Part shown: piece after piece, positions 8,129-46,189 of the stretch
How the letters are laid out: each line of letters starts with the position of its first letter
How positions within the stretch are numbered: position 1 is the first letter of the stretch
From: Amphiscolops sp. MND2022
Lineage: Eukaryota
Direction: 5' to 3'
DNA: 60,000 nt
Assembly (NCBI GenBank): GCA_964187785.1
Contig: OZ076409.1
Coordinates: 41,232,001-41,292,000, forward strand
Made by a program: the position numbers and the translations under genes
The notes under the pieces: model-generated
What the model saw: only the letters and a program-made list of their open reading frames with translations
Database searches by the model: none
Told to the model about the DNA's origin: nothing

Positions 8129-8156
8129 TTTGTATAAAAATTGGCTGATTGTGCCA

Positions 8157-9653: not shown

Positions 9654-9849
9654 TTTTCCATTTAATGAATAAGATAAGAAAAGAGTTCAGTGCTGAAGTT
9701 TCGATTCTGTATTGTAAGCGATAAAAAAGGGTAAGTGAATATGTCAGCACATGATTCTAAGTAGAAGTACTATTGACTGGTAGTAAAGTGTCAGTATGAC
9801 TATTTATATAACATAAGATATTAAGTACATGGAGTGACGTCATGTCACC
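9654..9849 (-). repeat. Gypsy-B 3' LTR
   Basis: Aligns by eye with 39199-39396 (e.g. ctgaagtttc.attctgtattgtaagcgataa ... aagtacatg.agtgacgtcat). Confidence 0.85.
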
Positions 9850-13413: not shown

Positions 13414-13734
13414 CCGAAGCCTGATCAAATTCATCCAGCCTGAGCATTCATCAAATAAAGGAAGTTTTTAATAAAAATATTGTCATTGGAAACTTTATCA
13501 ATCAACAAAAACAAGAAGTGTTACGAATTTCTCATCCAAATTAGTACAAATAATGAAGATATAGAGTATTCTTTTATATAATGAAAAACAATCAAAATTT
13601 TTTAATGAAGTTGGTTTCCAATGTTGGGCATTTTTCAAAGAAGGTATACAGTATGTGGCATTTATTGAGAGGCGAGTAACATCACGAAGAGCCTAATATA
13701 TAATGATACATTTAGTGTTGAAACTTGTATATAA

Positions 13735-14170
13735 ATTCAGCTGTCTTAACGCTCCTGGAGTCGTTAAAGTCTTTAATCTTATACAAAAAATTAGCTGTCT
13801 TAACGCTCCTGGTGTCGTTAAAATCTCTAATATCAGATAAAATTTTTAAAACTTTACCGACTCCAGGAGCGTTGAGACAGCTAAAATTATAGATGATTTT
13901 AAAGACTTTAACGACTCCTGGAGCGTTAAGACAGCTAAATTTATATACAATAATCAAAACTTTAACGACTCCCGGACCTGGACCAGGATCGTTAAAACAG
14001 CTAAATTTATATATAATATTCAAAATTTTAACGACTCCAGGAGCGTTAAGACAGCTAAATTTATATATAATTTTAAAGACTTTAACGACTCCAGCAGCGT
14101 TAAGATAGCTAAATTTATATAAATTATTTGAAATTGCAACGATTCCAGGAGCGTTAAGACAGCTAATTTT
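13735..14170. repeat. 54-bp-period array (8 units) of the palindromic AACGACTCCAGGAGCGTT motif
   Basis: Cores at 13748 and 13802 (reverse) and 13856, 13910, 13964, 14030, 14084, 14138 (forward). Confidence 0.92.
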
Positions 14171-14364
14171 TTGAGACTGTATTACAGAACCTACTAAAGT
14201 CAGATGACTTAAAGCGTGGTCGCATGAAAATACTGCCAATGTCAATGACAAAATATTGATCGTTTTTCGTTTGATGAGATTTTACTTCGAAACTTTAACA
14301 ACTCCAGGAGCGTTGAGAAAAATCAATATTCGAAATGATTAAACAATCTTTTGAAATCCAGGAA

Positions 14365-17238: not shown

Positions 17239-18238
17239 TAACCTACTGAAAGCGATTCTTGGTAACTTGAATTAACTTCGAAAAAAGTCAACAGGGTTGA
17301 AACTGATTTACAATGAGTCACAATATACACAATTTAACAAATGAATGAAGTAGCAAAAATCAGGCACAATGAGAAAATAAAAGGATTCCGAAAGTCAACG
17401 GTTGTCGTGATCAAAATAGCACTAGCTGAGGCTATCAATTCGAGTGATTGACCTAACGCGCCATAACACATTAGCCACCCCGAAAAATATCAAGTTGACA
17501 AGGTCTGAAACAAAAACATATACCGATCAATATTCTCTTTTTTCCAAATCAAAACGTATCTTATCGAACAAAAATCAGTTCTCGAACTTAGAAAGGTCCT
17601 GATCTTGAAATCCTAGGCTTTCGTTCAAGTTGTTCGGTCATAAATAAAGAAGGCCTGAAGGAATTTCGAAAAGATTTGCAGTACTGAAAGTAATACTATA
17701 CTACTGAAAGTAATTCTACATTGTCAGTAAAAATTTAATTTGAACATTGTTCGTTGATAGACGGCAACAAGGTCATGGACCGCTGTTTGCTTTTAAAGAG
17801 TCCAGAAAACGTTGAAGAATTTACGAATATACGAAGAATCTTCACAGCAGTTGTAAGGCATGCTACCATATCTTATTATGATTGTGAAGATTTCACAAAA
17901 ATAATTGAAAATAATTGCTTTGTGAAGAATCCAGGAAAGCTTGTGAAGAATCCAGGAAACTTTGAAGAATTGACGAAAATCGAAGAATCTTCACACCCAT
18001 TATTAAACATGGGAACCATATATTATTAATATTGTGAAGAATCCACAAAACCTTTTCCTCATTTCTTGAAAATTTCACTTTTGCACTACTAATATTATTG
18101 TCTGAATTCTTCCCTCAAATTGGCAGCACTTTGAAGTTCACTTTTTCCCCATTTCCAGAAAAAACATTTTGGTAGTCGCAAAAGCCAATTTTCCTCAATT
18201 CTTGAAAAACACAAAGTTCCCTGTTTGGCGTCGTAATG

Positions 18239-21200
18239 CCCCTTGGGTTCTCTCCCCTCTGCGATAGGGGTTCCGAAAGATTGGATTTAGTGGTTTGCTC
18301 GCTCTTTTTCTATGTTATTTGTTATTTGTATCGTGTGTTTTGGGCTTGTTATTGCAATTTGTGGTTTTGCTCATACAAACTTTCAAATTTGTCTCTATTT
18401 TGTTTTTTCTTAAGAAATAAGTATGGGAATTTGTTACTGACTTGTTCTTTCAGCCTTTTTGATGCTTTCTTTACTAGCTCGTCGTATGGTCGTATAGTCC
18501 GTTCCCATTCGTGAACGACTAGTCATGCAGTGTCTCTGGTTTTGCTGAAAGATTTTTTTGTCTATTGGGTAACACATGTAAATAATTATGAACTTCCGTT
18601 TTTGGCTTTCTGCCATAATCGCGTTCGAATGGTTTTTCTTTATGCTTGAATGGTCCGTTGTTCTCATTACCTTTAGTGAACGGATTGACGCCTCGTATCT
18701 GTTTTACCCTTCTTCCAAAGGTATTCTTTAAATGTTCTGATACCTTGTTCCACCAATCCCGTTGGTGTTTGTATACTCGGTGTCCTGTATATTAAATTTA
18801 TGTTTGGAACTCTACAAAACTCTCTTCCAGTAAAAGCCGTGTGTTTATCTTTTTTCCGTAGGTGCACGCAGCCGGCCATCTGCTGTACCGGTCTTTTGAA
18901 ATTAGTAAAAAAATCTTCGATGTTTAAATTTTTTTGGTCCAATGAAATCCAATTGGATTTCATTGTTTGGATTCTCAACCGGTGGTAAGTAATGAATTTC
19001 GGTCAACGGTATTGTTCTTACCAGACATTTTGCCGGGGATGTTTTCCTCGCATTTTTAATGGATGTCTCTTGACAGTCGTGGCCACCAAAATGGTTTTGC
19101 CGCTGTCGTCATCTTGTTGATGGCCACGTGCACTTTAAGTAAAAGCGTATTAATTGTAGTCGTGAGCGCTTCCAATAATATTATTATTCGGTCGTCGTAA
19201 ACTACGGCGCCGAATCTCGTTGAAAGCTGCTTCTGGTGAGGTTTAATCTCCTCAGGAATTTGTTCTACGGTTCTTCTTTCCAAGCACACTAGCGTGTTTA
19301 GCATTTTTCGTTGTTTATTGTTTCAATGCCGATAGTTATTAGATCAGTTGAGATATTGTGCTCGGCCTGTCGTATTGTTTCTTCCAAGTCCCAGTTATTG
19401 TCGTCCAGCACGTGGCTGTTTTGTCCCATATGTATATAGAGTACACCCGTAGCCCCCAGGTATCGTTTGAAATTTATTGCAGGAACGTCGCGTCACTCGA
19501 TTCAGCTTGTTGACTCTGTTTTAGTTGTTTCCGGTAATTCTTGTGTGTCTCCGCTGGTTCCTTTTGATTCGCCTTGTTGTTGTGTAGGGAAGTTTCTGTT
19601 CTATTCGTTTACCCATTGTAATTCTTCTCTTGGCAAAGTTCCTTCTTCGGGTTCTCTATTTTGCTCTCCCATACGGTCCCATCTCATTCGTTTTTGTCGT
19701 TAGTTTAGCGCCATTTCTGTTCGCTTTATTATTTCTTCTCTGTGGGGTCTTGGCGGGTTGTGTTTGTTCCGTTTTCCGTTTGACGTTTTGAACTCTCCGG
19801 ATTCGGTCAGCTCTTTCCAACGGGTTGTTTGATTTATCGGTTTTTTCGGAGGATTTTTTCTTTCCAATTGACCTATTTGTCTTTGGTTTTTTGATCGGCT
19901 TGGGTAAAGTTAAGTTTGTTTTGATCGACTGTGTTAAAATGTGGTAGCAACGAACTGCGCTTGTTTGTTTTGCTCTCTTGTGACTTCGGTTCGTTCGTTT
20001 TGCTTGATTCTGCTTGGCTGGTTTTTTGTTCACTCCACTCATTCTGATCCGTTCGCGCATCTGATTTCCTTTGACCGCCGACGCTGGCGTAATTCTTGAT
20101 GAACTCAAGTAATGGTATTTGAGCAATTAAATACGTTCTATTTGTCGTAATTTTTGATCGGTTCTGCCTTTGATATTGGGTTTTTACTGAAATATTCGGT
20201 CAGCGCTAAATGTTTTCTGTAAAGTGTTGATAAAGAAAGTAGTTTCTGTAAGATTGATATCGAAATGAGCCAAACAATCTAATCGTCTTGTTAGCCTCCC
20301 GCTGTATGTTTTATTCGATCTGTTCTTTTTGATTGGTGGTTCTAGCGCTTGGTGATCTGTTAGTAATTCATTTGGCTTTCCATAAATATGTAACCTAAAA
20401 TGTTCCAGTCCCCAGACTACGGCCAGCAGTTCTAATTAATTGATGGCGTGTTTTTTCCAGTATTGTATGAAATTCGACTCGCGAATGCGATCGGGTTTCA
20501 TTCTCAAATTTTTTGATTCTGCCACAGTGTTGATCCCAATCTTTTTGTACTGGCGTCTGTTGTGATGATATTTTCGCTCTGCGCGTTGTAATGTGCTATG
20601 CACGGTTTTTTGATAATACGTTCCTTTAAGTTATTGAACGCTTTGGTATGTTTGTCTGTCCACATCCATTTGTTCTGTTTCTACAACATTTTTCTCAGAA
20701 TACCTGTGTTTGCTGAGAGGTTTTCAATGTATTTGGATAGGTACTGTATTGCTAACACAAATGCTTTGAATCCTTTTCGTTTTTTTGAATGCTGATTTTG
20801 GTGATTGCTTTTAACTTGTCATGTAGTGGTCGGTTAGCTTGTTGATCTTTTTTGTGTCCCACCCATTCAATTATTCCTTTAAAACTCGCACTTTTTGGGA
20901 TTTAGTCTGTGACCGGTTTGTTCCAGTTTTGTCATTGTTTTCCGTACTTTTGCTTCGTGTTTTTCCATGTTTCGTTTGGTGGCTACTATTATGTCATATT
21001 ATGATGTCATCTAGCCATGCCGGATGTTTGTGTTCCAGTATCGTGTCTATCCGTTCTTGGAATTTTGTTGGAATATCAGCCAGTCCGTAGAAATCTTTCA
21101 GGAAACGGTAGTATCCAGTGAAGGCTCCTCCCGTAACTGTGAGTTTACAAATAGTTTTTTTTTGTATTTCCGTCCAGTTTAATTTGTCAATACGTGTAAT

Positions 21201-22803
21201 CGGAGTCAAGTGTTGCTGCCAATATTTCTCCGTCTGTTCCTTCAGATATTTTTCTTGATACTCGTGAAATCAGTTCTTCCGTATTGGGCATTTGTGCTTT
21301 TCTTTTTACTCTTACTTCGTTTAGTTTTCTGGAATCAAGGGCAACCTCTACCGATTTGTCTTTTCTCACCGTTATTCCTGCGAGGCTTACAAAACAAACT
21401 TCGGTAATTTCTGTTGCTCTTTCCACGTATCCGTGTATTATTAGTCGTTTCAGTTTTTGTAGCACTTGGTCCTGGAGGTGTATTGGGATTGATAGTCCGT
21501 TTTGTTGTATTATTTGTGCTCCGTCCTTTAGATTTGTTTTAACAGAGTTTTTTACCTCTTTGTTTTTGTAGAATAAGTCTTTTGATATCCTCTTTTCCGT
21601 GTTGTCCCGTTAAATGTTGTGTATTTGAATTGCATCGTTATTTGAACTGAAGTTTGTTTTCAGCCGTTGCATTTAATCCAAATCCATTAACACAGCTGTT
21701 TGTGCTCTTGTGATTAGCAAACGTAATTCGATTGTTTCTTTGTTTGTTTTCACCTTCGTTTTCGTTTGTCCCGCGAAATTGATCTTTTGACTTTTCACAT
21801 TTTCATTTGTGTTCTTGAGTGGTTCAAGTGGAGTTGTATTGTTGAAAAAGTATTCCGGAATAAGTGTGAGTGGCCAGCCTCTGTCATTGATTAAATTGAT
21901 TCGTACGTTTTTATTCAAAAGTGTGGAGTTGTTAAAGCCTTTCTTCTGTTTGGCGTTCATCTATTTTCTTAATTTTGCTGTGTTTCCAATTGCCTTCTTC
22001 TGCGTACCACGTTGTCCTTTCCACGTTTTGTACTCGTTTTGTTGATCTGCACTTCTTCTCGTAATGGCCTCACCTTTTGCAATTTCTGCATTCTGCCGGT
22101 TTTGCAGACGTGTTGTCTCGACCAATTTGGTGTCCGCATCGGTTATCTCTCTGCATTTGCTTTTGGTATTCCGGTCTTTTCTTTCGGCATCGGATTTGTC
22201 CGTCCATTTTCTTTTGTATGGTCGTTCCTGTACGTGTTTGATTGTTCTCTCATCGGTTAGTCATTTTTCAGTCATACATGTGCTCATGTATTAAAGCTGT
22301 TATTGTTTAAATGGTCATGTTTTTTCTCCGAATTTTCTTCTTTAATTCATAATAGCCTGTTGATCTCCCTATCACGGACAGGAATTTGGATGCTATTATT
22401 TCTGCCGGTGTCACGTTGTCGAATTCGCAGTTCTTTTCCACCTGTAACACCCTTGTCCACACATCTTTCGTGTTTTTTCTCTTGTTATACCAAAGAAATC
22501 TACTGTGGAACTTGCTTCGTTCCGGTATGAAGTGTAACCGGAACAGCGAGTTTAGTTGATTTATGTCGATTCTGTTTGGGTTTTTGCCTCGAACGGTTCT
22601 TGTCATTTTCGTTGTCGCTGACTCGCCCAGTGCCCAGATGATTAAATCCTTGATCCGGTGTTCTAGATCATCTCTGTAGTTCGGTGATATTTCGAGGTCT
22701 GTCGTCATATCGTTGAGGTCGGTATTCTGGGTCATTTTATTGTATTGTGAGAATCTTCTCCACTATCGGTTCGCCTCCTGTATCCCGCGTTTTTTGAATG
22801 TTT
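18239..22803 (-). pseudogene. Gypsy-B gag-pol remnants
   Basis: gag 22307-22735, protease region 21673-21960, RT VALDSRKLN / AWLDDIII (20994-21465), RNase H ~20250-20600, integrase 18434-19304; fragmented. Confidence 0.88.
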
Positions 22804-22809
22804 GGTAAT

Positions 22810-25303
22810 TGTTACGACTACTGTTCGTGTCGTTATTTTGAGTGGACGTTATCCTAACGGATTTAGTTGGAGTATAGAAACTCCTGGTTTCGTTTTCGGT
22901 TTCATCATCTATGCTAATTCTGACGTTTTCCCTTGTTTCAGGCTTCAAGAGTTTCAACATTTCTCTCTGGGATTCTGCTAAAAGATTCTTAATTTCGGAA
23001 GTGATTTCCTCTTTAAGAGATGCTCTTAGACTTTCTAGAAAACTGTTCTCGACCCTGGGGGACTTTGATTTAGATGGCCCTGCTATACTCGAGTCTTGCT
23101 CGACTAGACTAGGATTTTCTACCTCTGCAGGAGAAATGAAACCTTCACTTACATCATCATCAGCGCTGAGCTGAACGTTCTTTCTCTTTTGGCTTCTCGT
23201 TGTAGACATTGTGGTGAAGAAAATATCTTGTTTCTTTGGAGAATTGAATTTTCTTTCAAAGTTTTCAACAAAGTTGAATTAAGTGAGATTGAGATATACA
23301 GGTTAGGTGCAACTGGTTATCACAAAAATCAAAAGACTGAGTCCCTCAATCGTCAAATCCTATCATATTTATACCCTCCCAGCATTATTTGATCACGAAC
23401 AAAGTCCTAATTTCCCTTGAACAATTAGTCATTTCCTGTATTTTCGATGAAAAAATCATTTTGTTCCCAATTTTACGTCGACATTTCGTCAATTTTTGAG
23501 ACACGATGATCTTCATTTAGTATTAGTCATCAAATTTGATCATATCATTTCATCTCGGCGTCCTTTTGCTTCCTCCCAAGCAGGAAGTAGATATTACTTC
23601 AGTCTGTCAAACCGGAAATGCTTCCCTGTTTTACTGCTTTGGTTCGCGGGAAATTGACGCTGAGATGACGCTGACGTGAACAAAAAATACCTGGTTTTGA
23701 ATTTCGCTTTGATAAAAATGCTATGACTAATTTCAAGATAAGGATATTTGAACGATGCCAGGACGATATTTTATGAATTTGGATTCAATCTTTTGCTAGA
23801 GGTGGGAATGAAACCATGATATGAAAATAATACCTTGTTAGCAACTTTGTCATGTCGTGTTACGCACGACGAGATTTACAAAATTAACAACAACGTTTGT
23901 TAAATAGCAACATCAACACAACGTAAATAACTGGATAGCAACGGATGTACTAATATAGGAAAACATGACCACAACCACGAGTACTGCGTTCAATGTTGTA
24001 GAGTACAAAAATGCAAAATATATGAAAAATACATTTCTGGTACACAATATACTTTTTAGTTGGAGAGAATAAACCGTGACTTCCTCATTAATCTACTACG
24101 AAAACTTGTAATAAGATGATTCATGCACTGAAATTTCTTTATTGTTAAGGATACATGATTGTTACTTAACGTGGGGTTGAAATTATCCTATATGTGTCAA
24201 AACGCATTCTAAATTGGGACTTTAAACCATGGAAAAGTCAACAATACATTCGTTATACAATTTGCCACAGTCTGCAATTTTCTCTCTTTAGGAAATAACG
24301 GCATTTGTGTGATGAAAACTTGACTAAATTCAGCAAATTCATCCACTTTATTCAATTCATAAACTTGTCAGCGTCATGTTGACGAGTTTTCTTGGCAGAA
24401 TTTAGGCCTCACAAACTTGTCAACGTCATGTTGACGAGTTTTCTTGGCAGAATAGAGATTTTGACTAGTTTGACGCAATGCTGACGAGTATTTTAGAAAT
24501 GAGTCTCTCGCTAGCTGCCGGCGCAGTGACGTCACGGTGGCGGTAAATTGGAATGATTTCTAGCAATGCTATTAATATAGGCGGATAATTGGAATGATTT
24601 TCTGGTATGCATATGCGAGGCAGTGACGTCAATTGGTATGCCCTCAAACTTGTCTGCGTCCTACTGACGACAAATATACATGTATTCTTGTTTCTTTTGC
24701 CGCTTTGTTTACTCAGCGCAGTATTGACGTCCTAAATCGCTTTAATTGCTGTTCAAAGAGTAATTAAGCTGTCTTTCTAAGAAAAGGCTTAACTACCACG
24801 GTGTGTTGTCTCACTGTAATTTCCTGTTTTAGGTCTAAATGGAATGTATTTTCTCAAGATTAGTTTTGATGTATTTTCATTTAGATTAGCTTATGGTCTC
24901 TTTATTCTTGGGATAGTTTTATTCTAATTTTCAGGTTGTGAATGTTTCATTTGTCGTGGTTGACTCGTCCAGCCAAACATGCGTGAAATCATTTTTGGAT
25001 TATTTTGCTTCCTTATTTCATTTCCGCCCAAATTTGCGCGCGGTAAATGTGTATTTTACAATTCCGGTACTATTTTATTCAATTTTGCGAGGGCATGAAA
25101 AATTTAGAACGCGTTCACTAGTTTTATTTGGAATTTTTGTTAAGCGAAAGTATTATTGCATTTCAAGTCACAGTTTATTTGAATTTAGTTAGAGTTCGAG
25201 TTAATAGCCAAAATACTCTTCGTGAGTCTTGCGGTGCACCCATGTCCACGCCCAAAGCCAACTCTCCTGCATCCGCAATCCAGTCCGGGAGCGGACTGTG
25301 ACA
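22810..25303 (-). repeat. Gypsy-C 3' LTR
   Basis: TGTTACGA...TGTGACA, near-identical to 36586-39079. Confidence 0.97.
24361..24730. repeat. LTR motif cluster (52-bp duplication plus degenerate GTCA-N9-TGAC copies); also at ~38136-38505
   Basis: aaacttgtca.cgtcatgttgacgagttttcttggcagaat twice, plus three variants. Confidence 0.8.
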
Positions 25304-25931
25304 GGGCCACTGTCATGGGACGAACGGCTTTGCCGGGTTGATTGAAGTCGAACGCCTGGCGCAGGTGATTTTCGCGAGTGTAGTTTTCCTTGGCTTCATC
25401 TAGCATTAATTTCGGCTCCTCCAGATCGTTTAGAGGACTAGTTGTCAGCAGATTTATTCTTCTCAGTGGACCAGGGGGCGTGACAAAGTATGAAGTGGCG
25501 TCTTCTTGCTGCACCTTCTCCAGATATTCGGCTACTTTGCTACTTGTTACTGATTCGGTTTGGACAGCTGGGGCTTCTACTATGAATTTGTCCGAAGACA
25601 AGCTTTCATCAGGGCTTTCCGGGGAGTCAGCAATAACTTCTTCGGTCGACTCAGAGTGGGGGTATTGTCCCGATTCTACAGTTTCAAAACTAGAGAACGA
25701 CTCACTCAGCTTCAATTTCTTGCATTCTGTTTCTAGTGAATTTACCGATAGGTCGAGGCATTCTTCTTCGTCTGCGTTCGCCTCTGCAGATGAGTTCAGA
25801 ATTTCGATGATCAATCCCGGATAGGCCCTGCTGTCACTAGGTATTGGGGTGGACGATCTTGTTATTTCGCCCTCCTCCTCGCTTGATGACGAGATGTCGA
25901 TTAGTTCGTAGATATCTAACAAGTTGTTCAT
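25185..25931 (-). CDS. Gypsy-C accessory ORF (248 aa, acidic/Ser-rich, SIM-like motifs), ends inside the 3' LTR
   Basis: Intact ATG ORF divergent from the antisense gene; LIDISSSSEEE, IIEILNSS, LDLSVNS. Confidence 0.6.
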   Translation of the reverse strand: MNNLLDIYELIDISSSSEEEGEITRSSTPIPSDSRAYPGLIIEILNSSAEANADEEECLDLSVNSLETECKKLKLSESFSSFETVESGQYPHSESTEEVIADSPESPDESLSSDKFIVEAPAVQTESVTSSKVAEYLEKVQQEDATSYFVTPPGPLRRINLLTTSPLNDLEEPKLMLDEAKENYTRENHLRQAFDFNQPGKAVRPMTVALSQSAPGLDCGCRRVGFGRGHGCTARLTKSILAINSNSN

Positions 25932-26370
25932 TCTGCAGCGAAGTTTCTTGGCTGCTGTTTTCCGAGTTTGATTGTTTCACAATGAATTTCCCGGATAATT
26001 AGGATTACTGAGAATGTTGGGATAAATCCCTTCATTCTGATTGGTTAATCAATCTTTTTAATCCTTTCGATCTGCAGTTGTTGACGTTATGTCGACAACT
26101 CTTTTTATTGGCCAAGAAATTGAAATAATTCCTTTAGCCAAACTTGTCAACGTTATGCTGACGTCATTTTCGCTAGCTTAGCTAACTTTTGTAATTTGTC
26201 ACCGTTATGATGACGTCATTTTAGATTACAGGATTAATCTCTTAATCTCTATAACCTTTTTGTCGACGTTATGCCGACGTCAATTTTGTTGGTTGAGAGC
26301 CAACTTCAAGTTTTGTCACCGTTATGATGACGTCAATTTGGTTGTTGTTTTCAGATTTGCTGTTTAAACA
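25932..26370. promoter_or_regulatory. putative bidirectional promoter with five GTCA-N9-TGAC motifs
   Basis: Lies between divergent ATGs; motif at ~26080, 26146, 26198, 26262, 26315; ATTGG (CCAAT) boxes near 26040 and 26108. Confidence 0.55.
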
Positions 26371-29300
26371 ATGGATTCTGATCCAGTTCCTCCTCGTGCG
26401 GGTTCTGGTATTCAAGGTGGGCATGAGACGCAGTATTTGTTTTCAGAGGGGGACATTCACGAAAGTGATGCTGACCCTCTGTTTTCACAGTCTGCTGTTG
26501 GTAAGTTTGTCATTCCCCGATCCATTAAGCTTTTGTGAATAATACTACTATCAGATAGGCCTTTTCTGTTTCGTATTTCCACAGCTTAGGTTTTCTGACG
26601 CGTCGATTTGGGAATGTTGTTTCAGTTCCTGTGGTGACAGGGTCTTCTCCTGTAGCCGTCGTCTCTGCCCTACCGGCTGTTTTAACTGAGGTTTCTGTTG
26701 AACCACTTGTCGATGCCGCTGAGATTCCTCGTGCGCTTCCTGGCAGTTCCGTTGAGTCTACCAAGATCGGATCTGCTCTTTGTCCTTCCGATGATCTGGA
26801 TATGACTCTGGGGGCACTTGCGCGACAGCTTCATTCTTCCTCTGCTGTTGTTCCTCGCGGAGGTGAGGGTTATCCCCCCCTCTCAGAGATACTGAGCCAG
26901 GACGAGGGAAAGATCAAGGGACTTCTGGGGGGCCTGGAGTGGGGTTTCAGAAGTCATCTCCACGATTCAGTGGTTTTTTGTCTGGATCCGCTCGGGCTGA
27001 GGGATCGCAGGAATCTTCTCCAGTGCCCAAGCGTGGTAAGTATATTGTTTGGCTGCATTATTTGTTTGCTGTTCCTTTCCTATGGTTGTGATGGGTAATC
27101 ATTTCTTTGCTGGTGTGTTTCTTAATTAATGTTTTAACTAGGTTGCTTGGTGGCTGTTGGCGTCGAGGATTCTGTGGTTGGTGAGACGACGCGGCAGCTT
27201 CGTTCAGATAAGAATCAAGTCCCTGGCAAGTCTGTACACTTCAGCCTTTGTAGTAGTGATGGGGAGGAAGTGGATGCTGCAGATGTTCCTCAGAGTTCGG
27301 CACCCCGATTAGGACATGAGATTGCTGCCGTCCCAGATGTAGAGGGTCATTCCGTGGATCCTTTTGTTGCCAGTAAGTTCTGTATTATGTTGTTGTAAGT
27401 GTATTAGTCGGCTCAAAGGGTGTTGTTATCTTTGGAATAGGTATGGGGGGGGAAAATATTCAAGGTTTCCTATGGGTTTTATGGGGTGTGACTTTGTGTT
27501 ACAGAGTTCGAGGAGCTGATCAGGCGCATGGAAATGACACTGGACAGTGCTTCTCGGAATCGGAAGCGAGTGTACAGTCCAAGGCATAGATTGCGGCGGG
27601 ATATGGTTACTGGTCATCCAATCTTCGAGCTCTTTGTCAGTGGGTCCAGTACTGGGTCGGATAAAGCTTTCCACTGTATGATTTGTCAGCGGGATGTGTC
27701 CATGGAGTCACGAGGGGCTGCTGAGTTTTCTCGTCATTTCTTTGGGAAACGGCACTGGCAGCTCGACGTGGCTTATCGGGTTCGCAATGACATGCCTGTG
27801 TATAATAGATTGATGGACCCTATGATTCTGAGTGAGAGTCAGGTGGCAGAATACCGTGATTGGCCCAGTAAGGGCAAAAGCGAGGGATTTAGTTTCCCTG
27901 AAGACTTGCTGCCAGCGTGTACCCAGGTCAATTCTAGTGTGCCGCTAATGACAATGGTCAATTGCCTTCTTGAACTGTTGCGTTCTGGAGGTAGCTATAC
28001 TCTGCTACGTAGATTGTGGGGCAACTTTCGCGCGACTCTGGGTCGTGACAATCCCCTCTATAGTCTGAATTGGAGTCAAGTCGAGTCCTTGGTTAGTTGT
28101 GTTTTGGACGAATACTCTTCTTTGCATGTATCTGTCGTGTTTCCCTCATTTTTGTCTTGTCATTGATATTATGGATATTGAGTTCTGTTGCAGTTGGGTC
28201 CGTAAGTGTGTCATGGTAAGGTAGTTAGTTTTGTGTTTTAGTCGCTGATCTGCCGTGCACTGTTTCCACGGGCTTTGCGGATGTTGATTGCGCGTATCTC
28301 TGCTTTTCGGGAGTACAGCGTGTTTTTCGTGGAAGACGATAAGTCCCAGAAGTGCTTTGTGCAGACGTGGGATGATCACAGTTTGATGAGTGTTTGCGTG
28401 TGGGTGGAGCCTCTGGGGCAGGTTGTTCCCAAAGCAGAATTGTCTGGGTTGTCACGGATTGTTGGCAGTACTTCGTCGTGCCAGTTGCCTCTTTCCTATC
28501 ATGGGGGCAGTCCCACTCTGGTACGCGTTCTCAGTGACAATCGGGTTGACGGGCGGAGTTTCCTTCTGTTTCGTGAATTCAACACTGATGTATTTCTGCA
28601 TTGCTTCCGTCTGGCCTATCAGGAGACATTTGGAGGACTAGAGGTGACTACGATGGTGGATTTCCTAGTTCTTCGTCTCCGAGGTGCCCTGCAGGAATCT
28701 TGGCTGGAGAATGTGACTTCACTACGTCGGTGTGTCGCTGCTGGGCGGGTTCCATTCAGTGAGCTGTGTAGTGTCGTGCGTGATTTGATCTCTGTATGGC
28801 GTTCTGTGCGGAATTTCATTAAAGACAGTGCTCCACGACATATCAAGACTGAAGCTGGCAGGGTAATTTATTTCATTTGTTATCTCTTTCTTTTGTTGTT
28901 GTACTTTGGTGAGGTGCTCGATGTTATTGTGATTGTTCTCCAACTGGCTTAGGGTGGTGTTATTTTGTATTGCTTTTGCAAGCTTTGCGTTGTGGAGAGT
29001 TAGGTTTTTTAGTGCTCACGGTTGTTGTTTGTTGTTGTAGATGCGAGGTACAGACTGGACTATCTACTCTGATGGTATCGGTGAGCTGCGTTTGGGTCTT
29101 TTGTTGCACATCTTGGAGCTCTTTCATTGTACGTTCAGAAAGCAGTTATCGGGGCGGTCAGACTACAGTTTCCACTTTTACATGGAAGTATGTCAGTTTG
29201 TCTACTGCCTATTATCGCGCACCCGAAAGATTGGCTCTCTTCCTGATTTGAATGATTGGGAAGAGTATATGGATGAGCAAAGAGTTGATGAGTTCGAGAA

Positions 29301-30369
29301 TGTTGCCGTCTGTAACTTTTTGTCCAATCATTCCTTCGGTGTCGTCCTGCAGAACCGCAAAGATGGTGATGGTCGTATTTTCCGAGAGCAGTGTTTGAAG
29401 TTCATGGATCGGCTAGTCGATGCAATTCTTGCGCAGCAGCCTGTGACTGGGGAGTTTTCCCGGGGGCTCTATGCCTTTTGCCCTGAGTTATTGTTGGAGG
29501 GTGATGATCGTCGGATGCTGGAGCTTTTCCAAAAGTTGGTCCGTGTGCTGGAATTGAGTGGTTGTATTACAGCGTTGGAGTCGAGGACTGCTGTCGAGGA
29601 GTATTCTACTTTTGTTGTGGATGCTCGGAGAAGGCATTTGAGTGGTGGTTGTAGTGCGGAGGAAATTCCTGATGTGAAGCAGTACCTATTGTCGGACTAT
29701 AGTTTCCTGTCACGCAAGGCGCTGTGTCGTGTCTTCAAGTTATGTTGCTTGGTCGTCTTGAAACCCCGCAGTGATTTTCCTTCTGTGGATATTACGTGTG
29801 CTGGTTGTCAAGTTCCTGATTGGGTGGTGACCACGTGTGTGTGTGGTGTGCAGAGCAGTGTCTCGTCCGCTGATTTTAAATTGGGAACCTTTTTCACGAA
29901 GTTTACCATGAATGAAGTTCGGGAGTCAATTAGTTCTGCTCGTTCGTTTATGTCGCAAGTGGATTTCGATCCGTGGGCTGGGATCTGCAGTGACAGTCAT
30001 GCCGCATTTGTGGAGCGATATACGGAGCTGTTCAATGCACGTATGAGTCGTAAGAGGGGGTCTGGTTCCCAATCGACTAATGTTGTCGCTGAGTGCAGTC
30101 AAAAGGTGCGACCCGATGGTGACGATGGTGTTTCTGGCGATGTTCTTTCTGACAGTGCCGCTTCAGCTGTGTCCGCTCCTCCTGTGCCTAGTTCGAGTGG
30201 TTCAAGCTCTTTCAGGCAAAGTAAGGCACCGATTCACAGTAGTTTGGCTTCGTTGCTGGGTCGAAAAAGAGATGCCTCAAATAGTAGTGATCAAGTTGGG
30301 AAGAAGTCCAAGAAGGGATCCAAAAAGTCTGCTGTCAAGGGAGGAAAATCGTCCGCGAAGAAGGCTTGA
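26371..30369 (+). CDS. antisense 6-exon accessory gene of Gypsy-C (~1100 aa), zinc finger, possibly hAT-transposase-derived
   Basis: Exons 26371-26500, 26626-27035, 27142-27372, 27505-28091, 28242-28862, 29041-30369 with GT-AG introns; 4 of 5 junctions in phase, one needs +1 nt (probably the C7 run 26874-26880). Finger CMICQRDVSMESRGAAEFSRHFFGKRH; basic C-terminus. Confidence 0.8.
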
Positions 30370-30785
30370 ATGACACTTTGTATTATTGTCAAATTTCATT
30401 GTATTTTGTACGTTAATTTTGTTGTTTTCATATCAATACAATTGATTGCAGTTTTGTTGTATAATTAGAATTCCAAATAACGTCATGTATGACGCTAAAA
30501 AAGCACAAGAGTCAGTAATGGAGTCTTTCTAAAAGAGAGTAAAAAGGCCTTAGTATGCCTTTTAATTGAAAATCGTCGGGCCGGTTCGGTCTGGACTCCT
30601 GGTATTTCCTTTTCTCATTATTGAGTCAAAGTTATAGCGTCAAGTCGTCGAAAGTCAGGGTCTGCATTAGGTTTAGGGTTAGGTCGCAAGTTGTATTTTC
30701 CCGTTTTCCTCGGATTATATCCAATAACTGTAGGCGGTGATTTTGGGGGAATAGGTGGACTTTGAATGGGTGGGGGGCGTCGTAT

Positions 30786-33700
30786 CTATGGGTTATCCCC
30801 TACGTCTGTAGTGAGATTTGAAAAGTCCGGGGACGGCGGAGTCACTTCGTTTGTATCTTCGGTCGATTTTGATGCCGACATGTTACCGTCCGAGTTTGTC
30901 ACCTCTTGTATTTCCGTTCTTTGTTCGGTCTCTACGTTTTTTAGTGGCTCTTGTTCATCGATTTGTTTTCCGAAATCCATTTCCCATGATACTGCATACC
31001 ATTCATTGTGTGAAATTTTGACGTCTGGATCCGGTAGGTATTCGTTTGACCGTACTGTAACGTCGGGTATGCGTTGATCTGGCACATAGGGTCGTATTCT
31101 AATTCGATGCAGAGTTTGTGTATATCTCGTGCCAGTTTTTCGTATCGTATAGTTATTGTTTGATAATACTTTTATTACTATGTATGGTCCCGTCCAAATG
31201 CAATCTTGGAATGCAAATTTTGTCGACTGACTGTCAGCTTTCGGGTTAAGGATGTAACAATAGTCATTCACTTTAAGCGGGGCTGCAGAAGCCTTGCGGT
31301 CGTAGTATTTTTTGTATTTGAGATAAGATAGCATGATGTTATCTTTTGCTGTTGCGCGGACTTCGTCTATTTGCTTCTGTAATTGTTCTGTTATTTCCGA
31401 ATTAGGCGTAGTCTTCCATTTTGGTTTGATGCCTAGTTTCAGGTCTAGGACATTGTAAGGTATGCGGCCATGAAATACCGTGGATGGTTCACATCCTAGT
31501 GTTTCATGATACGTTGTGTTGTAGTTCATAACTGCAATTTGGACGTATTTATGCCACATTGAACGTCTTTCGCCTGTCGATATTTTCAGTGCAGTTTTGA
31601 TTGAGGCATGAGTTCTTTCTAGGATTCCAATTGTTTGTGCGTGTTTTGTAGACGCATGACTGATTTGTATTTCCAAGATTTGCGTTATTTCTGCAACGAT
31701 TTCTGATCTGAATTGTGATCCTTTGTCAGATAAAATTAGTGTTGGCAGATATGCGTGTCTTGTCATGACGTCCACGATGCATCGTCCGATTGTCTTCGCT
31801 GTGACATTCTGCGTTGGATAAGCAAAAAGATATCTTGAGAATACGTCTATCATTGTGACGATGTTCTGATATCCTGCAGAATTTGGCAGGTTCGGTAGTA
31901 TGTCGATTTCGAGGATATCTTCTGGTCCGAGAACATGTTCCGTGTTGTTGATCATCTTCGGTCGGATTTGGTTGTTGTTGATCCTTTTGTATTTGATACA
32001 GTCTTCACATTGCATTACCCACTGTTTGATTCTTTTGGCTAACCCAGGGTAATAGTATTTGGATCTGCATTCTTGGATCATTTTTGTAATTCCAGGGTGT
32101 TTTCCCATCTGTCCGTGAAGGGCTTTGAGGAGTTCTGTGATCAAGTGCTCGGGGATTAGTATTTGATGATGTGTGACCTGTCCACATTCCCCGTAGTATT
32201 TGCGCATTAGAATTCCGTCTTTAACTATTAGTCTATTTTCGTGAACTAAAAGACGTTTTGCTGTTGTGTCCGTTTGTAGAAGATGTTTGTCGTACTCTTC
32301 ACATATCAGCTTCTTTTTGATTGTTTTGAAGACTGGGTCTGAGTCTTGTTCTACTCTGATGCGTGCATCTTCCTTTATTGCTCCGAAGGTATATGATGCT
32401 TTGTTTAATGGGATCGGGTTCGTTTCTTTGATGGCTAGTTTGATTCTTGTCGAGTCTTCGTCGCGAGCGGCTTGTCTAGCTTGTTCTTTCTGCAGTAGTA
32501 TTTCTTCTTCAGTTTCAATGGTTTCTTCTGGCAGAAAGAAAAGTTGTTCTTCATCGGCGACGTCCGTGGATTGTAGGTTGACTTGTATGGGTCGCACAGT
32601 GATGTCGTTTCTGATCTTTAGTTCGACTCTTTCTTTGGGATTGAGATCAATTCGTGATAGGAAGTCAGCCGCAGTGTTTTGCGTCCCTGCAACGTGCATG
32701 ATGTGGAAGTTGAATTGTAACACATAGTCGCATGCATTCCAAAGTGTGGGAGGGATCGTTTTTGTTTGAAAGAATCTTTCAGATCCGACAGATCTGTTGT
32801 CGGTCATTACCAGAGTCGGTAGGGTTGTTTCCCATAATATGTGGCTGTATTCTAAAAAAGCATGGTAGATCGCTAGGAATTCTTTGCAATAAATGGACAT
32901 TTTCAGTTGTGCTGGTGAGAATACTTTTGATCCAAATGCCACTGGTGCAAACGTTTTCTTTTTTGAATTGAGTTTTTTGTTTGGGTCTTCCTCAATCATG
33001 AGTGCGTACCCTGAGGCTCGAAAACTTGCGTCTGTCATTAGGACGTATTGTCGTCCTGTGATCGGTTGTCTCAGTGCTAGCCCACATGCTTCTGCTAATG
33101 CTGTGTTGATGGCTTTGTAGTGATCGAGTAGTTCTTCGGTCACCTTGATTTGTTTGTCTGCTTTCAGGAGTTCGTAGAATCCGAGTAGTTTTTCTGAGAG
33201 TCTTGGGATATAGTTTCTGTAGTAATTGACGAATCCGATGTATCTTTGTACCTGTTTTTTGGATTTGGGAAATCTGACGTTTGCCAGGAATTTTTGGATT
33301 CTGTGGTCCTGTGGGGCGATTCCTTGTGGAGTTATGGTACGTCCGAGGAATTCGATTTCAGTCACTCCAAAGTGACATTTTTCGATGGTTAGTTTTAGTC
33401 CCGCTTGTCTGATACATTCGAAGACAGCTCTGATGTTGCGTATCAGTTGCGTCACAGAATTAGCAGCTACTCCAATGTCGTCCACATATTGCGCGCACTG
33501 GTCAGCTTTGATGACTTTATCTAAGTACTCTCTCATGAAGCTTGAGAAAGCTGACAAAGCCCTGCTCAGGCCTTGAGCTAGACGTTTGTATGCAAAGGTT
33601 CTGCTCGCAAAGTTGAATGCCAGCATTTCTATGGATCTTTGGTCCGCCATTTGTAGGCAGTGGTATGCTTGGGAGCAGTCTAGTTTGCAGAATAATTGTT

Positions 33701-35546: not shown

Positions 35547-35552
35547 TTTTTT
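35495..35552 (-). promoter_or_regulatory. -1 ribosomal frameshift signal
   Basis: A AAA AAC directly before the gag TAG, followed by a GC-rich stem (TACGCC...GGCGTA); the -1 frame is open for 50 codons into the pol ATG at 35396. Confidence 0.85.
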
Positions 35553-36985
35553 GAGTCATCATTACTTTTAGTTGCTGTTTGTTGGGCCGATGATTCTAAA
35601 GTGCGCTCCTGAGTATGGTGTCTCTTGGGTCGGGGGTCATTTGCTGCATTGGCACCGTTCCAGCAGTCTTCAGTTTTGTGAGGTTTGCCACAAGTTTCAC
35701 ATTTAAGTGTTTTTCCTGTGGTATTGTTGTTGTGCCCGTTATTCTTCCGGGTTTGTTGCCACTTGTCTCGTTTTAGCTTTCGGCATTCGGCTTTGTAGTG
35801 GCCAAATTTGTTGCAATAAAAACAGTATCCTTTTTTAGGGTGCTGCGTCGTGTTCTCGACTGGTTTTGTTTCCGTCTTAATAGGGGCCTGTTCTATTGTG
35901 TTGAGAGGTACTAAGTTGACCTCGTCTGGTGCCCCAAGGCCGTTGAGTCGCATTTCTCGTTCCAGATGGAGCACTATATCGTTGTAGGGTTTGTCCTCGA
36001 GGTATGCCCTGTTGAGGATCTTTTTCACGTGATCGGGCATTTTTGCATAGATTGCTTTATCTCTGAATTGTTGTGCCTCAGCTCCGAAGGCTTCTTTTGC
36101 AGTTTTCTGGAGGACATCCAGGAATTCGTGTAATTTTTGTGTTGAGGGGTCGAATTTGAGAGAGTCCCACTCGCATCTGGCTTTTGCCATTGATAGATAG
36201 TCGCCAAAACGACGTTTAAAAATTGTCATTATCTCGTCCAATGAGTCTTTCTTGGTGTCCTCAATGTTGCAAAATGCTTGTAAGGCGTCCCCTCTGAGGA
36301 GTGAGTGGAAGTAGTTGATCTTTTGAAGTTCTGTGAGATGTGGGTACATCTTTAGGTTGTTGCGAAACAGATCCTCGAATAGTTCAAACTTTTCGGATTT
36401 CCCATCGAAAGTTGGGAGTGATGCCGTTAATGCCTTCGGCATAGGTAGTATTGTGGAGTCACTCTTTTCTGCTCCAAACAGTGTTCTGGCCACTGCTAGG
36501 CGCTCTTTTGGCGCAGGTTGACTTTGGGACCGTTTTTTTGGTCTTTTTACCTGGTTGGTGGAGTCGTTTAAAACTCCTGTCACCATGTTACGACTACTGT
36601 TCGTGTCGTTATTTTGAGTGGACGTTATCCTAACGGATTTAGTTGGAGTATAGAAACTCCTGGTTTCGTTTTCGGTTTCATCATCTATGCTAATTCTGAC
36701 GTTTTCCCTTGTTTCAGGCTTCAAGTGTTTCAACATTTCTCTCTGGGATTCTGCTAAAAGATTCTTAATTTCGGAAGTGATTTCCTCTTTAAGAGATGCT
36801 CTTAGACTTTCTAGAAAACTGTTCTCGACCCTGGGGGACTTTGATTTAGATGGCCCTGCTATACTCGAGTCTTGCTCGACTAGACTAGGATTTTCTACCT
36901 CTGCAGGAGAAATGAAACCTTCACTTACATCATCATCAGCGCTGAGCTGAACGTTCTTTCTCTTTTGGCTTCTCGTTGTAGACAT
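35543..36985 (-). CDS. gag: Gypsy-C Gag (480 aa)
   Basis: LPTFDGK capsid-start motif; zinc knuckles CFYCNKFGHYKAEC and CETCGKPHKTEDC. Confidence 0.93.
   Translation of the reverse strand: MSTTRSQKRKNVQLSADDDVSEGFISPAEVENPSLVEQDSSIAGPSKSKSPRVENSFLESLRASLKEEITSEIKNLLAESQREMLKHLKPETRENVRISIDDETENETRSFYTPTKSVRITSTQNNDTNSSRNMVTGVLNDSTNQVKRPKKRSQSQPAPKERLAVARTLFGAEKSDSTILPMPKALTASLPTFDGKSEKFELFEDLFRNNLKMYPHLTELQKINYFHSLLRGDALQAFCNIEDTKKDSLDEIMTIFKRRFGDYLSMAKARCEWDSLKFDPSTQKLHEFLDVLQKTAKEAFGAEAQQFRDKAIYAKMPDHVKKILNRAYLEDKPYNDIVLHLEREMRLNGLGAPDEVNLVPLNTIEQAPIKTETKPVENTTQHPKKGYCFYCNKFGHYKAECRKLKRDKWQQTRKNNGHNNNTTGKTLKCETCGKPHKTEDCWNGANAANDPRPKRHHTQERTLESSAQQTATKSNDDSKN
36568..36585 (-). promoter_or_regulatory. 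Gypsy-C primer-binding site (tRNA-Leu-like, uncertain)
   Basis: TGGTGACAGGAGTT directly after the 5' LTR. Confidence 0.65.
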
Positions 36986-39079
36986 TGTGGTGAAGAAAAT
37001 ATCTTGTTTCTTTGGAGAATTGAATTTTCTTTCAAAGTTTTCAACAAAGTTGAATTAAGTGAGATTGAGATATACAGGTTAGGTGCAACTGGTTATCACA
37101 AAAATCAAAAGACTGAGTCCCTCAATCGTCAAATCCTATCATATTTATACCCTCCCAGCATTATTTGATCACGAACAAAGTCCTAATTTCCCTTGAACAA
37201 TTAGTCATTTCCTGTATTTTCGATGAAAAAATCATTTTGTTCCCAATTTTACGTCGACATTTCGTCAATTTTTGAGACACGATGATCTTCATTTAGTATT
37301 AGTCATCAAATTTGATCATATCATTTCATCTCGGCGTCCTTTTGCTTCCTCCCAAGCAGGAAGTAGATATTACTTCAGTCTGTCAAACCGGAAATGCTTC
37401 CCTGTTTTACTGCTTTGGTTCGCGGGAAATTGACGCTGAGATGACGCTGACGTGAACAAAAAATACCTGATTTTGAATTTCGCTTTGATAAAATGCTATG
37501 ACTAATTTCAAGATAAGGATATTTGAACGATGCCAGGACGATATTTTATGAATTTGGATTCAATCTTTTGCTAGAGGTGGGAATGAAACCATGATATGAA
37601 AATAATACCTTGTTAGCAACTTTGTCATGTCGTGTTACGCACGACGAGATTTACAAAATTAACAACAACGTTTGTTAAATAGCAACATCAACACAACGTA
37701 AATAACTGGATAGCAACGGATGTACTAATATAGGAAAACATGACCACAACCACGAGTACTGCGTTCAATGTTGTAGAGTACAAAAATGCAAAATATATGA
37801 AAAATACATTTCTGGTACACAATATACTTTTTAGTTGGAGAGAATAAACCGTGACTTCCTCATTAATCTACTACGAAAACTTGTAATAAGATGATTCATG
37901 CACTGAAATTTCTTTATTGTTAAGGATACATGATTGTTACTTAACGTGGGGTTGAAATTATCCTATATGTGTCAAAACGCATTCTAAATTGGGACTTTAA
38001 ACCATGGAAAAATCAACAATACATTCGTTATACAATTTGCCACAGTCTGCAATTTTCTCTCTTTAGGAAATAACGGCATTTGTGTGATGAAAACTTGACT
38101 AAATTCAGCAAATTCATCCACTTTATTCAATTCATAAACTTGTCAGCGTCATGTTGACGAGTTTTCTTGGCAGAATTTAAGCCTCACAAACTTGTCAACG
38201 TCATGTTGACGAGTTTTCTTGGCAGAATAGAGATTTTGACTAGTTTGACGCAATGCTGACGAGTATTTTAGAAATGAGTCTCTCGCTAGCTGCCGGCGCA
38301 GTGACGTCACGGTGGCGGTAAATTGGAATGATTTCTAGCAATGCTATTAATATAGGCGGATAATTGGAATGATTTTCTGGTATGCATATGCGAGGCAGTG
38401 ACGTCAATTGGTATGCCCTCAAACTTGTCTGCGTCCTACTGACGACAAATATACATGTATTCTTGTTTCTTTTGCCGCTTTGTTTACTCAGCGCAGTATT
38501 GACGTCCTAAATCGCTTTAATTGCTGTTCAAAGAGTAATTAAGCTGTCTTTCTAAGAAAAGGCTTAACTACCACGGTGTGTTGTCTCACTGTAATTTCCT
38601 GTTTTAGGTCTAAATGGAATGTATTTTCTCAAGATTAGTTTTGATGTATTTTCATTTAGATTAGCTTATGGTCTCTTTATTCTTGGGATAGTTTTATTCT
38701 AATTTTCAGGTTGTGAATGTTTCATTTGTCGTGGTTGACTCGTCCAGCCAAACATGCGTGAAATCATTTTTGGATTATTTTGCTTCCTTATTTCATTTCC
38801 GCCCAAATTTGCGCGCGGTAAATGTGTATTTTACAATTCCGGTACTATTTTATTCAATTTTGCGAGGGCATGAAAAATTTAGAACGCGTTCACTAGTTTT
38901 ATTTGGAATTTTTGTTAAGCAAAAGTATTATTGCATTTCAAGTCACAGTTTATTTAAATTTAGTTAGAGTTCGAGTTAATAGCCAAAATACCTCTTCGTG
39001 AGTCTTGCGGTGCACCCATGTCCACGCCCAAAGCCAACTCTCCTGCATCCGCAATCCAGTCCGGGAGCGGACTGTGACA
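36586..39079 (-). repeat. Gypsy-C 5' LTR
   Basis: Near-identical to 22810-25303; followed on the - strand by the PBS. Confidence 0.97.
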
Positions 39080-39198
39080 GGTAATGTAATTGGTTGGTGG
39101 GTTTTTCGGTTTCTGAATTTTCTCTTTTGGAGATTTCTCCGCTTGAAGAACTTGTGCTCTTCGCTGATTTTTGATTCTCCATCTTGCTGACTGCGCCA

Positions 39199-39396
39199 TG
39201 TTCTATCTTATGAATAAGATTTAAAAAAAGAATTCAGTCCTGAAGTTTCTATTCTGTATTGTAAGCGATAATAAAGATTAAGTGAATAGATCAACACATG
39301 ATTCTAAAAAGAAAAATTTTTGACTGGTACTAAAGCGTCAGTACGACTATTTGTAGCACATATGAAATTAAGTACATGAAGTGACGTCATTTCAGA
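39199..39396 (-). repeat. Gypsy-B 5' LTR
   Basis: Direct repeat of 9654-9849, directly adjacent to the PBS. Confidence 0.85.
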
Positions 39397-42175: not shown

Positions 42176-42467
42176 TTTTTAATAACGCAGGTTTTATCCT
42201 TGAATCATACGAGTTCGGAGCCTTTGTCCCGGTTTTCACTCCCATAAAAAATCAGGCTGATCATAATCTGCCGTAATAAATACAATATGATTCCAAGCTG
42301 ATTATAGACTGGTGCCAACGAAGGCATGACGTCATAAGCGTGCATCAAAAATCATACGCACGTTTCATTTGCGTAATGATCATATATGTATACGTCTCAA
42401 GCTCTTCTGTGTCATTCCTTGCATTTGTTCGAATGTACCCATGGTGTTTTATTTGTTTAGAAAGCAA

Positions 42468-45726: not shown

Positions 45727-45735
45727 TATATATAA

Positions 45736-46138: not shown

Positions 46139-46189
46139 ATTTACAGCCTTGGAGAAAAATTTAATATTGTTTTTTATGAATAATAAATT

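Follow-up and report, generated by a model that had tools for sequence, protein, structure and literature searches.

What reads a palindromic motif that a retrotransposon carries both in its LTRs and between two accessory genes? The first-pass annotation of the 60-kb window (the whole stretch of DNA analysed here) had reported GTCA-N9-TGAC in both places and had proposed inverted half-sites for a dimeric factor, possibly the antisense zinc-finger protein, with a host bZIP factor as the alternative. We examined the element that carries the motif, the copies of the motif as DNA and as RNA, and the protein encoded on the antisense strand.

The retrotransposon and its accessory genes

The motif belongs to a 16.3-kb Ty3/gypsy-type LTR retrotransposon on the minus strand of the window (Table 1). 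Its LTRs run from TG to CA, a target-site duplication flanks the insertion, and pol has the order protease-RT-RNase H-integrase; the Ty3/gypsy assignment rests on this domain order together with the LTR features. The two LTRs (36586-39079 and 22810-25303) were 99.7% identical with 8 differences, which indicates that the element is young. All DNA evidence comes from this one copy of the element; neither the antisense protein nor the RT stretch had a relative in protein-based scans of public viral, metagenome and genome contigs. CpG was not depleted (observed/expected 0.65-1.21). We take the primer-binding-site-like sequence to resemble tRNA-Leu primers. No polypurine tract was found ahead of the 3' LTR, where the 25 nt are coding and without a purine run, and a variant primer possibly takes its place. 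The junction of the 3' LTR (25297-25321) forms TGAC-N9-GTCA, the half-sites of the motif in reversed order, and the LTR end reads TGTCAC on the minus strand. The LTR is coding at both ends: 22810-23209 carries 133 gag codons and 25185-25303 the final codons, some 40, of the 248-aa ORF. Five AATAAA/ATTAAA signals lie directly past that ORF (24906-25179, minus strand), whereas the stretch from the TATA box to the LTR end has none.

Table 1. Coordinates of the element, its genes and the copies of the motif (positions in the window).
Feature	Position	Strand	Remarks
3' LTR	22810..25303	-	2494 bp, TG..CA; contains first 133 gag codons and end of 248-aa ORF
5' LTR	36586..39079	-	twin of 22810..25303
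Target-site duplication GGTAAT, left	22804..22809	+	6 bp
Target-site duplication GGTAAT, right	39080..39085	+	6 bp
Primer-binding-site-like sequence	36570..36585	-	starts with TGG, abuts 5' LTR; local fold z -4.6 on minus strand
gag, 480 aa	35543..36985	-	DUF1759 above cut-off; zinc knuckle below cut-off
pol, 1536 aa	30786..35396	-	protease-RT-RNase H-integrase; protease match below cut-off
TATAWA	23368..23373	-	no other from 22800 to 31000; gag ATG about 160 nt downstream; twin in 5' LTR
248-aa accessory ORF	25185..25931	-	acidic, serine-rich; env-like position
Antisense gene	26371..30369	+	multi-exon, hAT-transposase-like
Candidate exons of antisense gene	26371-26500, 26590-27035, 27142-27372, 27505-28091, 28242-28862, 29041-30369	+	each open
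C-x2-C-x16-H-x5-H zinc finger	27675..27755	+	arginine-rich stretch ahead of finger
3' splice-site-like sequence	26340..26354	+	16 nt before antisense ATG, between cluster and plus-strand ATG
Predicted RNA hairpin chain	25932..26345	-	motif hairpins (five) and spacer hairpins (four) in alternation; a branched domain and two more hairpins follow
Internal copy I1	26078..26097	+	4 mismatches; longer palindrome; more stable on plus strand
Internal copy I2	26144..26166	+	full CRE
Internal copy I3	26196..26218	+	full CRE
Internal copy I4	26260..26282	+	two symmetric changes, pair kept
Internal copy I5	26313..26335	+	full CRE
LTR units L1, L2	24361..24441	+	complete motif; 12-bp quasi-palindromes; tandem 52-nt duplication
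LTR units L3-L7	24467..24729 (starts 24467, 24512, 24609, 24650, 24710)	+	left arm decayed; CG-N6-TGACG kept; full CRE in L4, L5
5' LTR twin of the seven units	38136..38504 (starts 38140, 38192, 38242, 38287, 38384, 38425, 38485)	+	
Two further CG-N6-TGACG units	23640..23676	+	about 280 nt upstream (minus sense) of TATA box
Degenerate, inverted motif-like copy	30473..30501	-	weak; beyond 3' end of antisense gene; p 0.012-0.038, four queries, uncorrected

No env was detected in the element. The region from pol to the 3' LTR carries a multi-exon gene on the plus strand (26371-30369) and the 248-aa ORF on the minus strand (25185-25931), for which no Pfam match was found. The 90% cluster of the 248-aa ORF had 161 members, that of pol 73 and that of gag 7, and those of the last antisense exon and the finger exon had 27 and 16, hinting that this ORF and the LTR are common to more elements than the remaining parts. 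The last 10 residues of the ORF here were unlike those of all 14 aligned relatives. Its residues 10-20, LIDI followed by serines and glutamates, presumably resemble a SUMO-interacting motif; this candidate was rejected, since chance could account for it (2 observed, 1.0 expected, p 0.26 for the composition).

Four of the five exon junctions of the antisense gene were in phase. The junction between exons 2 and 3 was out of phase, which implies either a missed splice or a frame break in the present copy. A natural protein of 890 aa (P0342) matched three exons in a single frame, exon 4 with E 1.6e-29, exon 5 with 27% and E 3e-18, and exon 6 with probability 99.7; at least about 20 further long relatives were found besides it. 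Among 8000 candidates scored, 98 relatives of the last exon were recovered, and among 298 there were 164 relatives of the finger exon, the listed ones being ENA proteins. Uninterrupted natural relatives of 830-890 aa keep the finger. P0342 and P0462-P0496 represent many subfamilies, several of them with 18-104 members, in which the stretch from the finger to the C-terminus is a single frame of 710-890 aa; intron content therefore varies within the family. Across the subfamilies the antisense protein spans identities of about 35 to 98%. P0089 is a relative that joins part of the antisense protein, in frame, to pol-like sequence; in the present element pol lies on the opposite strand.

The antisense zinc-finger protein is a stronger candidate for a trans-acting reader than the first-pass annotation could tell: the C-x2-C-x16-H-x5-H pattern was kept in 55 of 63, 18 of 24 and 20 of 22 aligned relatives, and it agrees with the N-terminal CX2CXnHX3-5(H/C) finger given as a signature of hAT transposases in PMC7471704. 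Language-model matches in the Atlas pointed the same way for the last exon, where 24 of 30 carried Dimer_Tnp_hAT (PF05699) at 0.93, with 151-155 shared features, a number below the level typical for close family members. The finger exon matched GTF2IRD2/FAM200/BED clusters at 0.84-0.87, which is the level of a lead. Pfam gave no hAT match in the 54, 63 or 22 relatives scanned and no TRP28 (PF04195) match in the antisense protein or its relatives; searches of PDB sequences with the antisense protein were blank or at chance level. Fold searches with both models of the protein, of which the last-exon model is of low confidence, produced no significant match, and a Pandoravirus hAT-domain protein at rank 3 (E 0.71) was too weak for use. 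The finger region was modelled at pLDDT above 90. Among 144 re-aligned chains the best matches to it, at Z 3.6-5.2, were spliceosome chains, which we take to be SF3A2/Prp11, and TUT1/TUT4; one such match had an rmsd of 1.6 A over 47 residues. The BED entry of ZBED1 did not appear among the matches with Z of 2 or more. The fold class of the finger may be BED or U1-type. Its nearest solved folds are RNA-binding ones, but RNA binding by the finger is a lead only, because the Z values are low.

Positions of the hAT DDE triad and of CxxH were mapped by general hAT patterns that we presume to apply to this protein. At these positions in 22 full-length relatives the first D was not conserved (position 278, Q10/R8), the second was G15/D4 and the last was D14/E8; the CxxH stretch contained no C or H, and 13 other acidic columns were conserved. 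Overall, the antisense protein resembles a hAT transposase with eroded presumed catalytic motifs and an intact finger, and proteins of that kind have been published as regulators with sequence specificity. A nested intact DNA transposon was considered and rejected, as no terminal repeats surround the gene; neither a terminal inverted repeat nor an 8-bp duplication was found around it. For 6 of the 14 listed non-self members of the last-exon cluster, the longest contig was the same size as that of a listed gag or pol member. Because of this agreement and the lack of flanking terminal repeats, the antisense gene looks integral to the element family.

The motif clusters in DNA

The motif occurred exactly seven times in the window against 0.90 expected, and none of 100 shuffles reached seven, which confirms the clustering. 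All seven lay inside the clusters, three internal and two in each LTR, and they are not independent of each other, since two are LTR twins and the LTR pair arose by tandem duplication. Between the two start codons the five internal copies were recovered at the 52-66-nt spacing that had been reported, successive starts being 66, 52, 64 and 53 nt apart. The consensus TTGTCANCGTNATGNTGACG held exactly for three of the five; the copy at 26260 has 2 mismatches and that at 26078 has 4. The claim that several copies end in a CRE-like sequence was correct, with the full CRE TGACGTCA closing three of five internal copies and two of seven LTR units. A dispersed host repeat (9656-9847 and 39201-39394) also contains TGACGTCA. 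Pax, RFX, NFI and as-1 sites were considered as possible likenesses of the motif; the spacing in Pax and as-1 sites presumably differs by one base.

The flanks had been called unrelated. This was true of the 15 nt upstream and of 9-28 nt downstream, where identity was at background (0.23-0.34), but not of the 8 nt that follow the internal copies. Ungapped identity among the internal copies was 0.83 over the motif, 0.69 over these next 8 nt and 0.23-0.30 in the distal flanks. Two of three spacer comparisons showed weak similarity (p 0.013, 0.039 and 0.84, the second being LTR versus internal), and 26144-26222 matched 26260-26339 at 79%. In metagenome contigs at least 120 loci matched the motif, with one match in each of the 80 listed; over the 120 loci, blastn matches were confined to the motif itself (21-26 nt, 3 loci), and tblastn gave nothing.

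About five variants of the motif had been reported for each LTR. Repeats are indeed present there, but only two copies per LTR are complete and five more units keep just CG-N6-TGACG. Compared with TTGTCANCGTNATGNTGACG, two copies in each LTR were exact, a third had 3 mismatches and a fourth had 5. The LTR cluster consists of seven units at 41-60 nt spacing with one 97-nt gap, and all seven keep CG-N6-TGACG. L1 and L2 were 96% identical over 45 nt and are, as judged from their alignment, a recent tandem duplication. A matrix built from the internal copies scored above chance only at the two complete copies per LTR, the unit at 24650 standing at 0.83 expected per shuffled window. The reverse search with a matrix from the LTR units recovered four internal copies, at 0.00 (I2), 0.07 (I3 and I5) and 0.17 (I4) expected per shuffled window; I1 was absent from its top 30.

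TGACG is present in every internal copy and every LTR unit, and a CG stands 11 nt earlier in all seven LTR units. Since the LTR units were chosen by TGACG, their TGACG is circular as evidence and the phasing of the CG is the independent test. The CG stood 8 nt upstream of 12 of the 17 plus-strand TGACG of 22810-26370 (CG frequency 0.039), and across 22810-36585 a CG-TGACG spacing of 6 occurred 15 times while each of the other spacings from 3 to 10 occurred 0-2 times. The retention of CG-N6-TGACG in the five decayed LTR units looks like selection on a CRE-type DNA half-site. Both clusters are probably descended from one repeat unit whose motif outlived its flanks, because the motif is conserved between and within the clusters while the flanks diverged and the spacers are weakly similar. 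Five of the seven LTR units have lost the left half-site yet keep TGACG, and the host bZIP alternative is therefore favoured in the LTR.

Within the internal cluster we counted nine ATGs on the plus strand and three on the minus strand; the 100 nt ahead of the minus ORF and the 40 nt ahead of the plus ORF are free of them. The first-pass annotation had placed a divergent promoter here. Start sites just outside the cluster would fit the pattern, but splicing that skips the cluster, such as from the 3' LTR, would fit it equally well. The 3' splice-site-like sequence on the plus strand is a good match to an acceptor but is possibly initiator-like instead, and a splice-acceptor-like site was found at 26008 on the minus strand. 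Splicing of an antisense gene from the 3' LTR is described for HBZ in HTLV-1 (PMC4926181).

Folding of the internal cluster as RNA

On the minus strand the internal cluster is predicted to fold into a chain of hairpins that stops 3 nt ahead of the AUG of the 248-aa ORF. The predicted motif hairpin has a 6-bp stem and an AUAAC loop, and one spacer hairpin has a GAGA loop; the conserved TCA(A/T)TTT extension of the motif falls outside the hairpin. The fold of 25925-26375 had a z of -8.3 on the minus strand, with a centroid almost equal to the MFE structure, and a z of -4.0 on the plus strand, with a poorly defined centroid. We scanned 219 windows of 120 nt across the element, taking only every third step within pol. 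The three lowest minus-strand values (-7.1, -6.3 and -5.8) all fell at 26101-26340, and the lowest outside 25932-26345 was -4.6, at the primer site.

The four spacers alone, with borders taken from the motif coordinates, gave a z of -6.2 on the minus strand (0 of 300 shuffles) and of -1.7 on the plus strand (p 0.07). None of the six LTR spacers folded. Four of the five internal copies were more stable on the minus strand, and I1, L1 and L2 were more stable on the plus strand. A strand-neutral count of ungapped stems gave 12 against a shuffle mean of 5.9 and maximum of 10; the strand-neutral wobble count, 8 on the minus against 7 on the plus strand, was not significant (p 0.135). With DNA folding parameters the strands were nearly equal (-7.7 and -7.3). 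Covariation in 10 related copies was matched by 4 of 500 shuffles on the minus strand and 22 of 500 on the plus strand, values that relatedness alone can give. Rfam returned nothing near its gathering score, with 3 matches at chance level. These measurements establish an excess of inverted repeats in 25932-26345, and selection on the genome-sense RNA is likely. As the internal cluster is predicted to form a strand-biased chain of RNA hairpins, the inverted DNA half-sites proposed in the first-pass annotation are only one of two readings of its symmetry.

Each internal copy also forms a mini-ORF of 3-4 codons on the minus strand (26098-26336) that ends at the UAA of the loop, two starting with AUG and three with UUG. 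In I2-I5 the pattern is (A/U)UG, three codons and UAA, including the two true AUG mini-ORFs.

Candidate readers of the motif

The reading we tentatively favour, to which we give somewhat less than an even chance, is a cis element with two uses: a host bZIP factor would act on the TGACG arm and the antisense protein of the element on the complete motif, as DNA or RNA. The TGACG arm would be a CREB/ATF-type half-site of the host, which would make the LTR array an enhancer. The antisense protein would be a catalytically disabled hAT-type transposase, retained as a nucleic-acid-binding regulator, and would recognise the complete unit, of which there are five internally and two per LTR. By analogy with VANC, TnpA and Tax, it might recognise double-stranded DNA and activate or de-silence cognate copies, a version we consider unlikely. 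By analogy with Rev and Rex, it might recognise the repeated 6-bp/AUAAC hairpin on genomic RNA and so serve export, stability or read-through, which we regard as very doubtful. Equally great doubt attaches to the proposal that a domesticated hAT-type transposase with a disabled enzyme core became a Rev/Rex-like factor whose finger, nearest in fold to U1-type RNA-binding fingers, reads five hairpins in a 410-nt genomic-RNA element, while the same letters serve as CRE enhancer units in the LTR. If it were true, one motif would couple transcriptional and post-transcriptional control.

Host factors could suffice, since TGACG is present in every internal copy and LTR unit. A DNA enhancer read by the host alone is a serious contender, though on the unlikely side. 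Each of its units would pair two CG-centred CRE-type half-sites at a distance of 11 bp, to which host bZIP dimers would bind, perhaps with a partner on the TTGTCA arm; the array would have arisen by tandem duplication in the LTR and been copied to an internal divergent promoter, and the antisense protein would have another role. This agrees with TGACG and the phased CG being the sole invariant features of all seven LTR units, with the full CREs (three internal, two LTR), with the conservation of the TCA(A/T)TTT extension although it lies outside the hairpin, with the weak similarity of LTR and internal spacers (p 0.039) and with the ATG-free 100 nt and 40 nt before the minus and plus ORFs, which are compatible with start sites just outside the cluster. 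However, the circular choice of LTR units leaves the CG phasing as the one independent part of the argument, and neither the 14-15-bp minus-biased spacer hairpins nor the intact finger across dozens of subfamilies is explained. The strong minus-strand folding of the region and of its spacers would be expected if host machinery used 25932-26345 as an RNA element, either for export or as an IRES/leader for the 248-aa ORF. The motif would then be a stem-loop recognised by an RNA-binding protein of the host, and the LTR units would be a decaying or DNA-level offshoot. The end of the structure 3 nt before the AUG, the mini-ORF pattern of I2-I5 with two true AUGs, and a size and 3'-proximal position like those of the MusD transport element of about 400 nt, as described in PMC4588558, are consistent with such an element. 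We nevertheless hold it to be distinctly unlikely: the neutral wobble count was not significant, Rfam had no match near gathering score, a local hairpin chain is unlike the tertiary-folded MTE, the acceptor-like site at 26008 could excise most of the chain from the ORF mRNA, and five LTR units keep the sequence and lose the pairing.

The clusters might also be a neutral relic, either of quasi-palindrome tandem duplication and template-switch correction during reverse transcription or of subterminal repeats left from a captured DNA transposon. The recent duplication of L1/L2, the 79% match of 26144-26222 to 26260-26339 and the inverted degenerate copy beyond the other end of the gene fit such an origin. 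It is highly improbable given that the motif is much better conserved than its flanks, that the CG phasing is retained in decayed units, that the spacers fold and that neither a terminal inverted repeat nor an 8-bp duplication surrounds the antisense gene.

By analogy, the arrangement with two uses of the motif would work like the antisense aORFs of plants and fungi, like VANC/TnpA, and like Tax/CREB with Rex or the MTE, without full membership in any of these. Genes of the aORF-3R type between pol and the 3' LTR are described as the TRP28 ORFs of Retand/PRARE, gene23 of maize Grande, which has its own upstream promoter, and brtn of Botrytis Boty (PMC11963269, PMC7264820). The present element shares with them the Ty3/gypsy type, a long region with repeats from pol to the 3' LTR, and an antisense gene for a proposed nucleic-acid-binding regulator. 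It differs in that its gene lacks TRP28 and is multi-exon and hAT-like, whereas most such ORFs are stated to lack similarity to other transposons (PMC7264820), and in having a second, sense ORF, a repeat that recurs in the LTR and a predicted chain of RNA hairpins. VANDAL/VANC and Spm/TnpA are accounts of sequence-specific anti-silencing with proven binding and loss of DNA methylation; TnpA is reported as transposase-derived, and domesticated transposases are reported to lose catalytic residues (PMC5735166, bioRxiv 10.64898/2026.08.24.746577). An element-encoded protein and a dense same-orientation array of motifs in non-coding regions are found in those systems and here. In those systems plant DNA transposons use proteins of their own superfamily, whereas here a retrotransposon carries a DNA-transposon-like gene and a 20-nt quasi-palindrome, and CpG is not depleted.

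HTLV-1 combines Tax-responsive 21-bp repeats with CREB/ATF, HBZ and Rex/RxRE, as described in PMC4926181 and PMC4588558. CRE-containing LTR repeats (seven TGACG units per LTR cluster here), a spliced antisense gene and an acidic accessory protein are points of likeness, and the flanks of the LTR CRE units could likewise be contacted by a protein of the element. The element is not a retrovirus, no env having been detected, its antisense protein is a zinc-finger transposase-like protein and not a bZIP, and the repeat is also internal. DREF and ZBED1 are given in PMC7471704 as domesticated hAT proteins that bind palindromes and self-associate. The antisense protein resembles them in its N-terminal CX2CXnHX3-5H finger and in a putative C-terminal hATC-like region, but they are host genes with 8-10-bp sites and the finger here is closest to spliceosome and TUT1/TUT4 entries. 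For the MusD MTE, function has been demonstrated and kissing and pseudoknot contacts are required according to PMC4588558. The predicted hairpin chain is similar in its length of about 400 nt, its many stem-loops and its place near the 3' LTR on genomic RNA; it differs in its predicted local hairpins, in its five sequence-repeated stem-loops, in lying 630 nt or more from the LTR and in standing directly before an ORF.

The accessory domains of other LTR elements described in PMC6431247 and PMC13547354 include none that is hAT-like, and our searches of the published literature, chiefly open papers, turned up no LTR element described as carrying a gene derived from hAT. Tat/Rev-like roles have been proposed for antisense extra genes, without a target in the accounts of PMC7264820 and PMC11963269. 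The present family offers a candidate origin for such genes in LTR retrotransposons, a DNA transposase, and adds a finger that is conserved and a specific candidate site that would exist as both DNA and RNA. As the element is young and dozens of subfamilies are available, the co-evolution of protein and site and the choice between DNA and RNA binding are directly testable. Should host CREB be the sole reader of the motif, the repeat itself would be ordinary, and the antisense gene and the RNA structure would be what is of interest.

The rest of the window contained further repeats. Strongly T-skewed regions with ORF fragments lie at 2700-8200 and 18000-22800, with a weak aspartyl-protease match at 6853-7314, and are probably older retroelements on the minus strand. 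An element at 43870-58309, which we take to be Polinton/Maverick-like, has terminal inverted repeats of about 185 bp (92%) that start with AGTAGT, an AT-rich interior and an integrase core at 49322-50197. A tandem repeat of about 526-530 bp occupies 40030-41950 and 42466-42967, with an inverted partial copy nearby. A near-perfect palindrome with 98-bp arms was found at 9052-9248, and a 54-bp repeat array with an internal inversion at 13714-14327.
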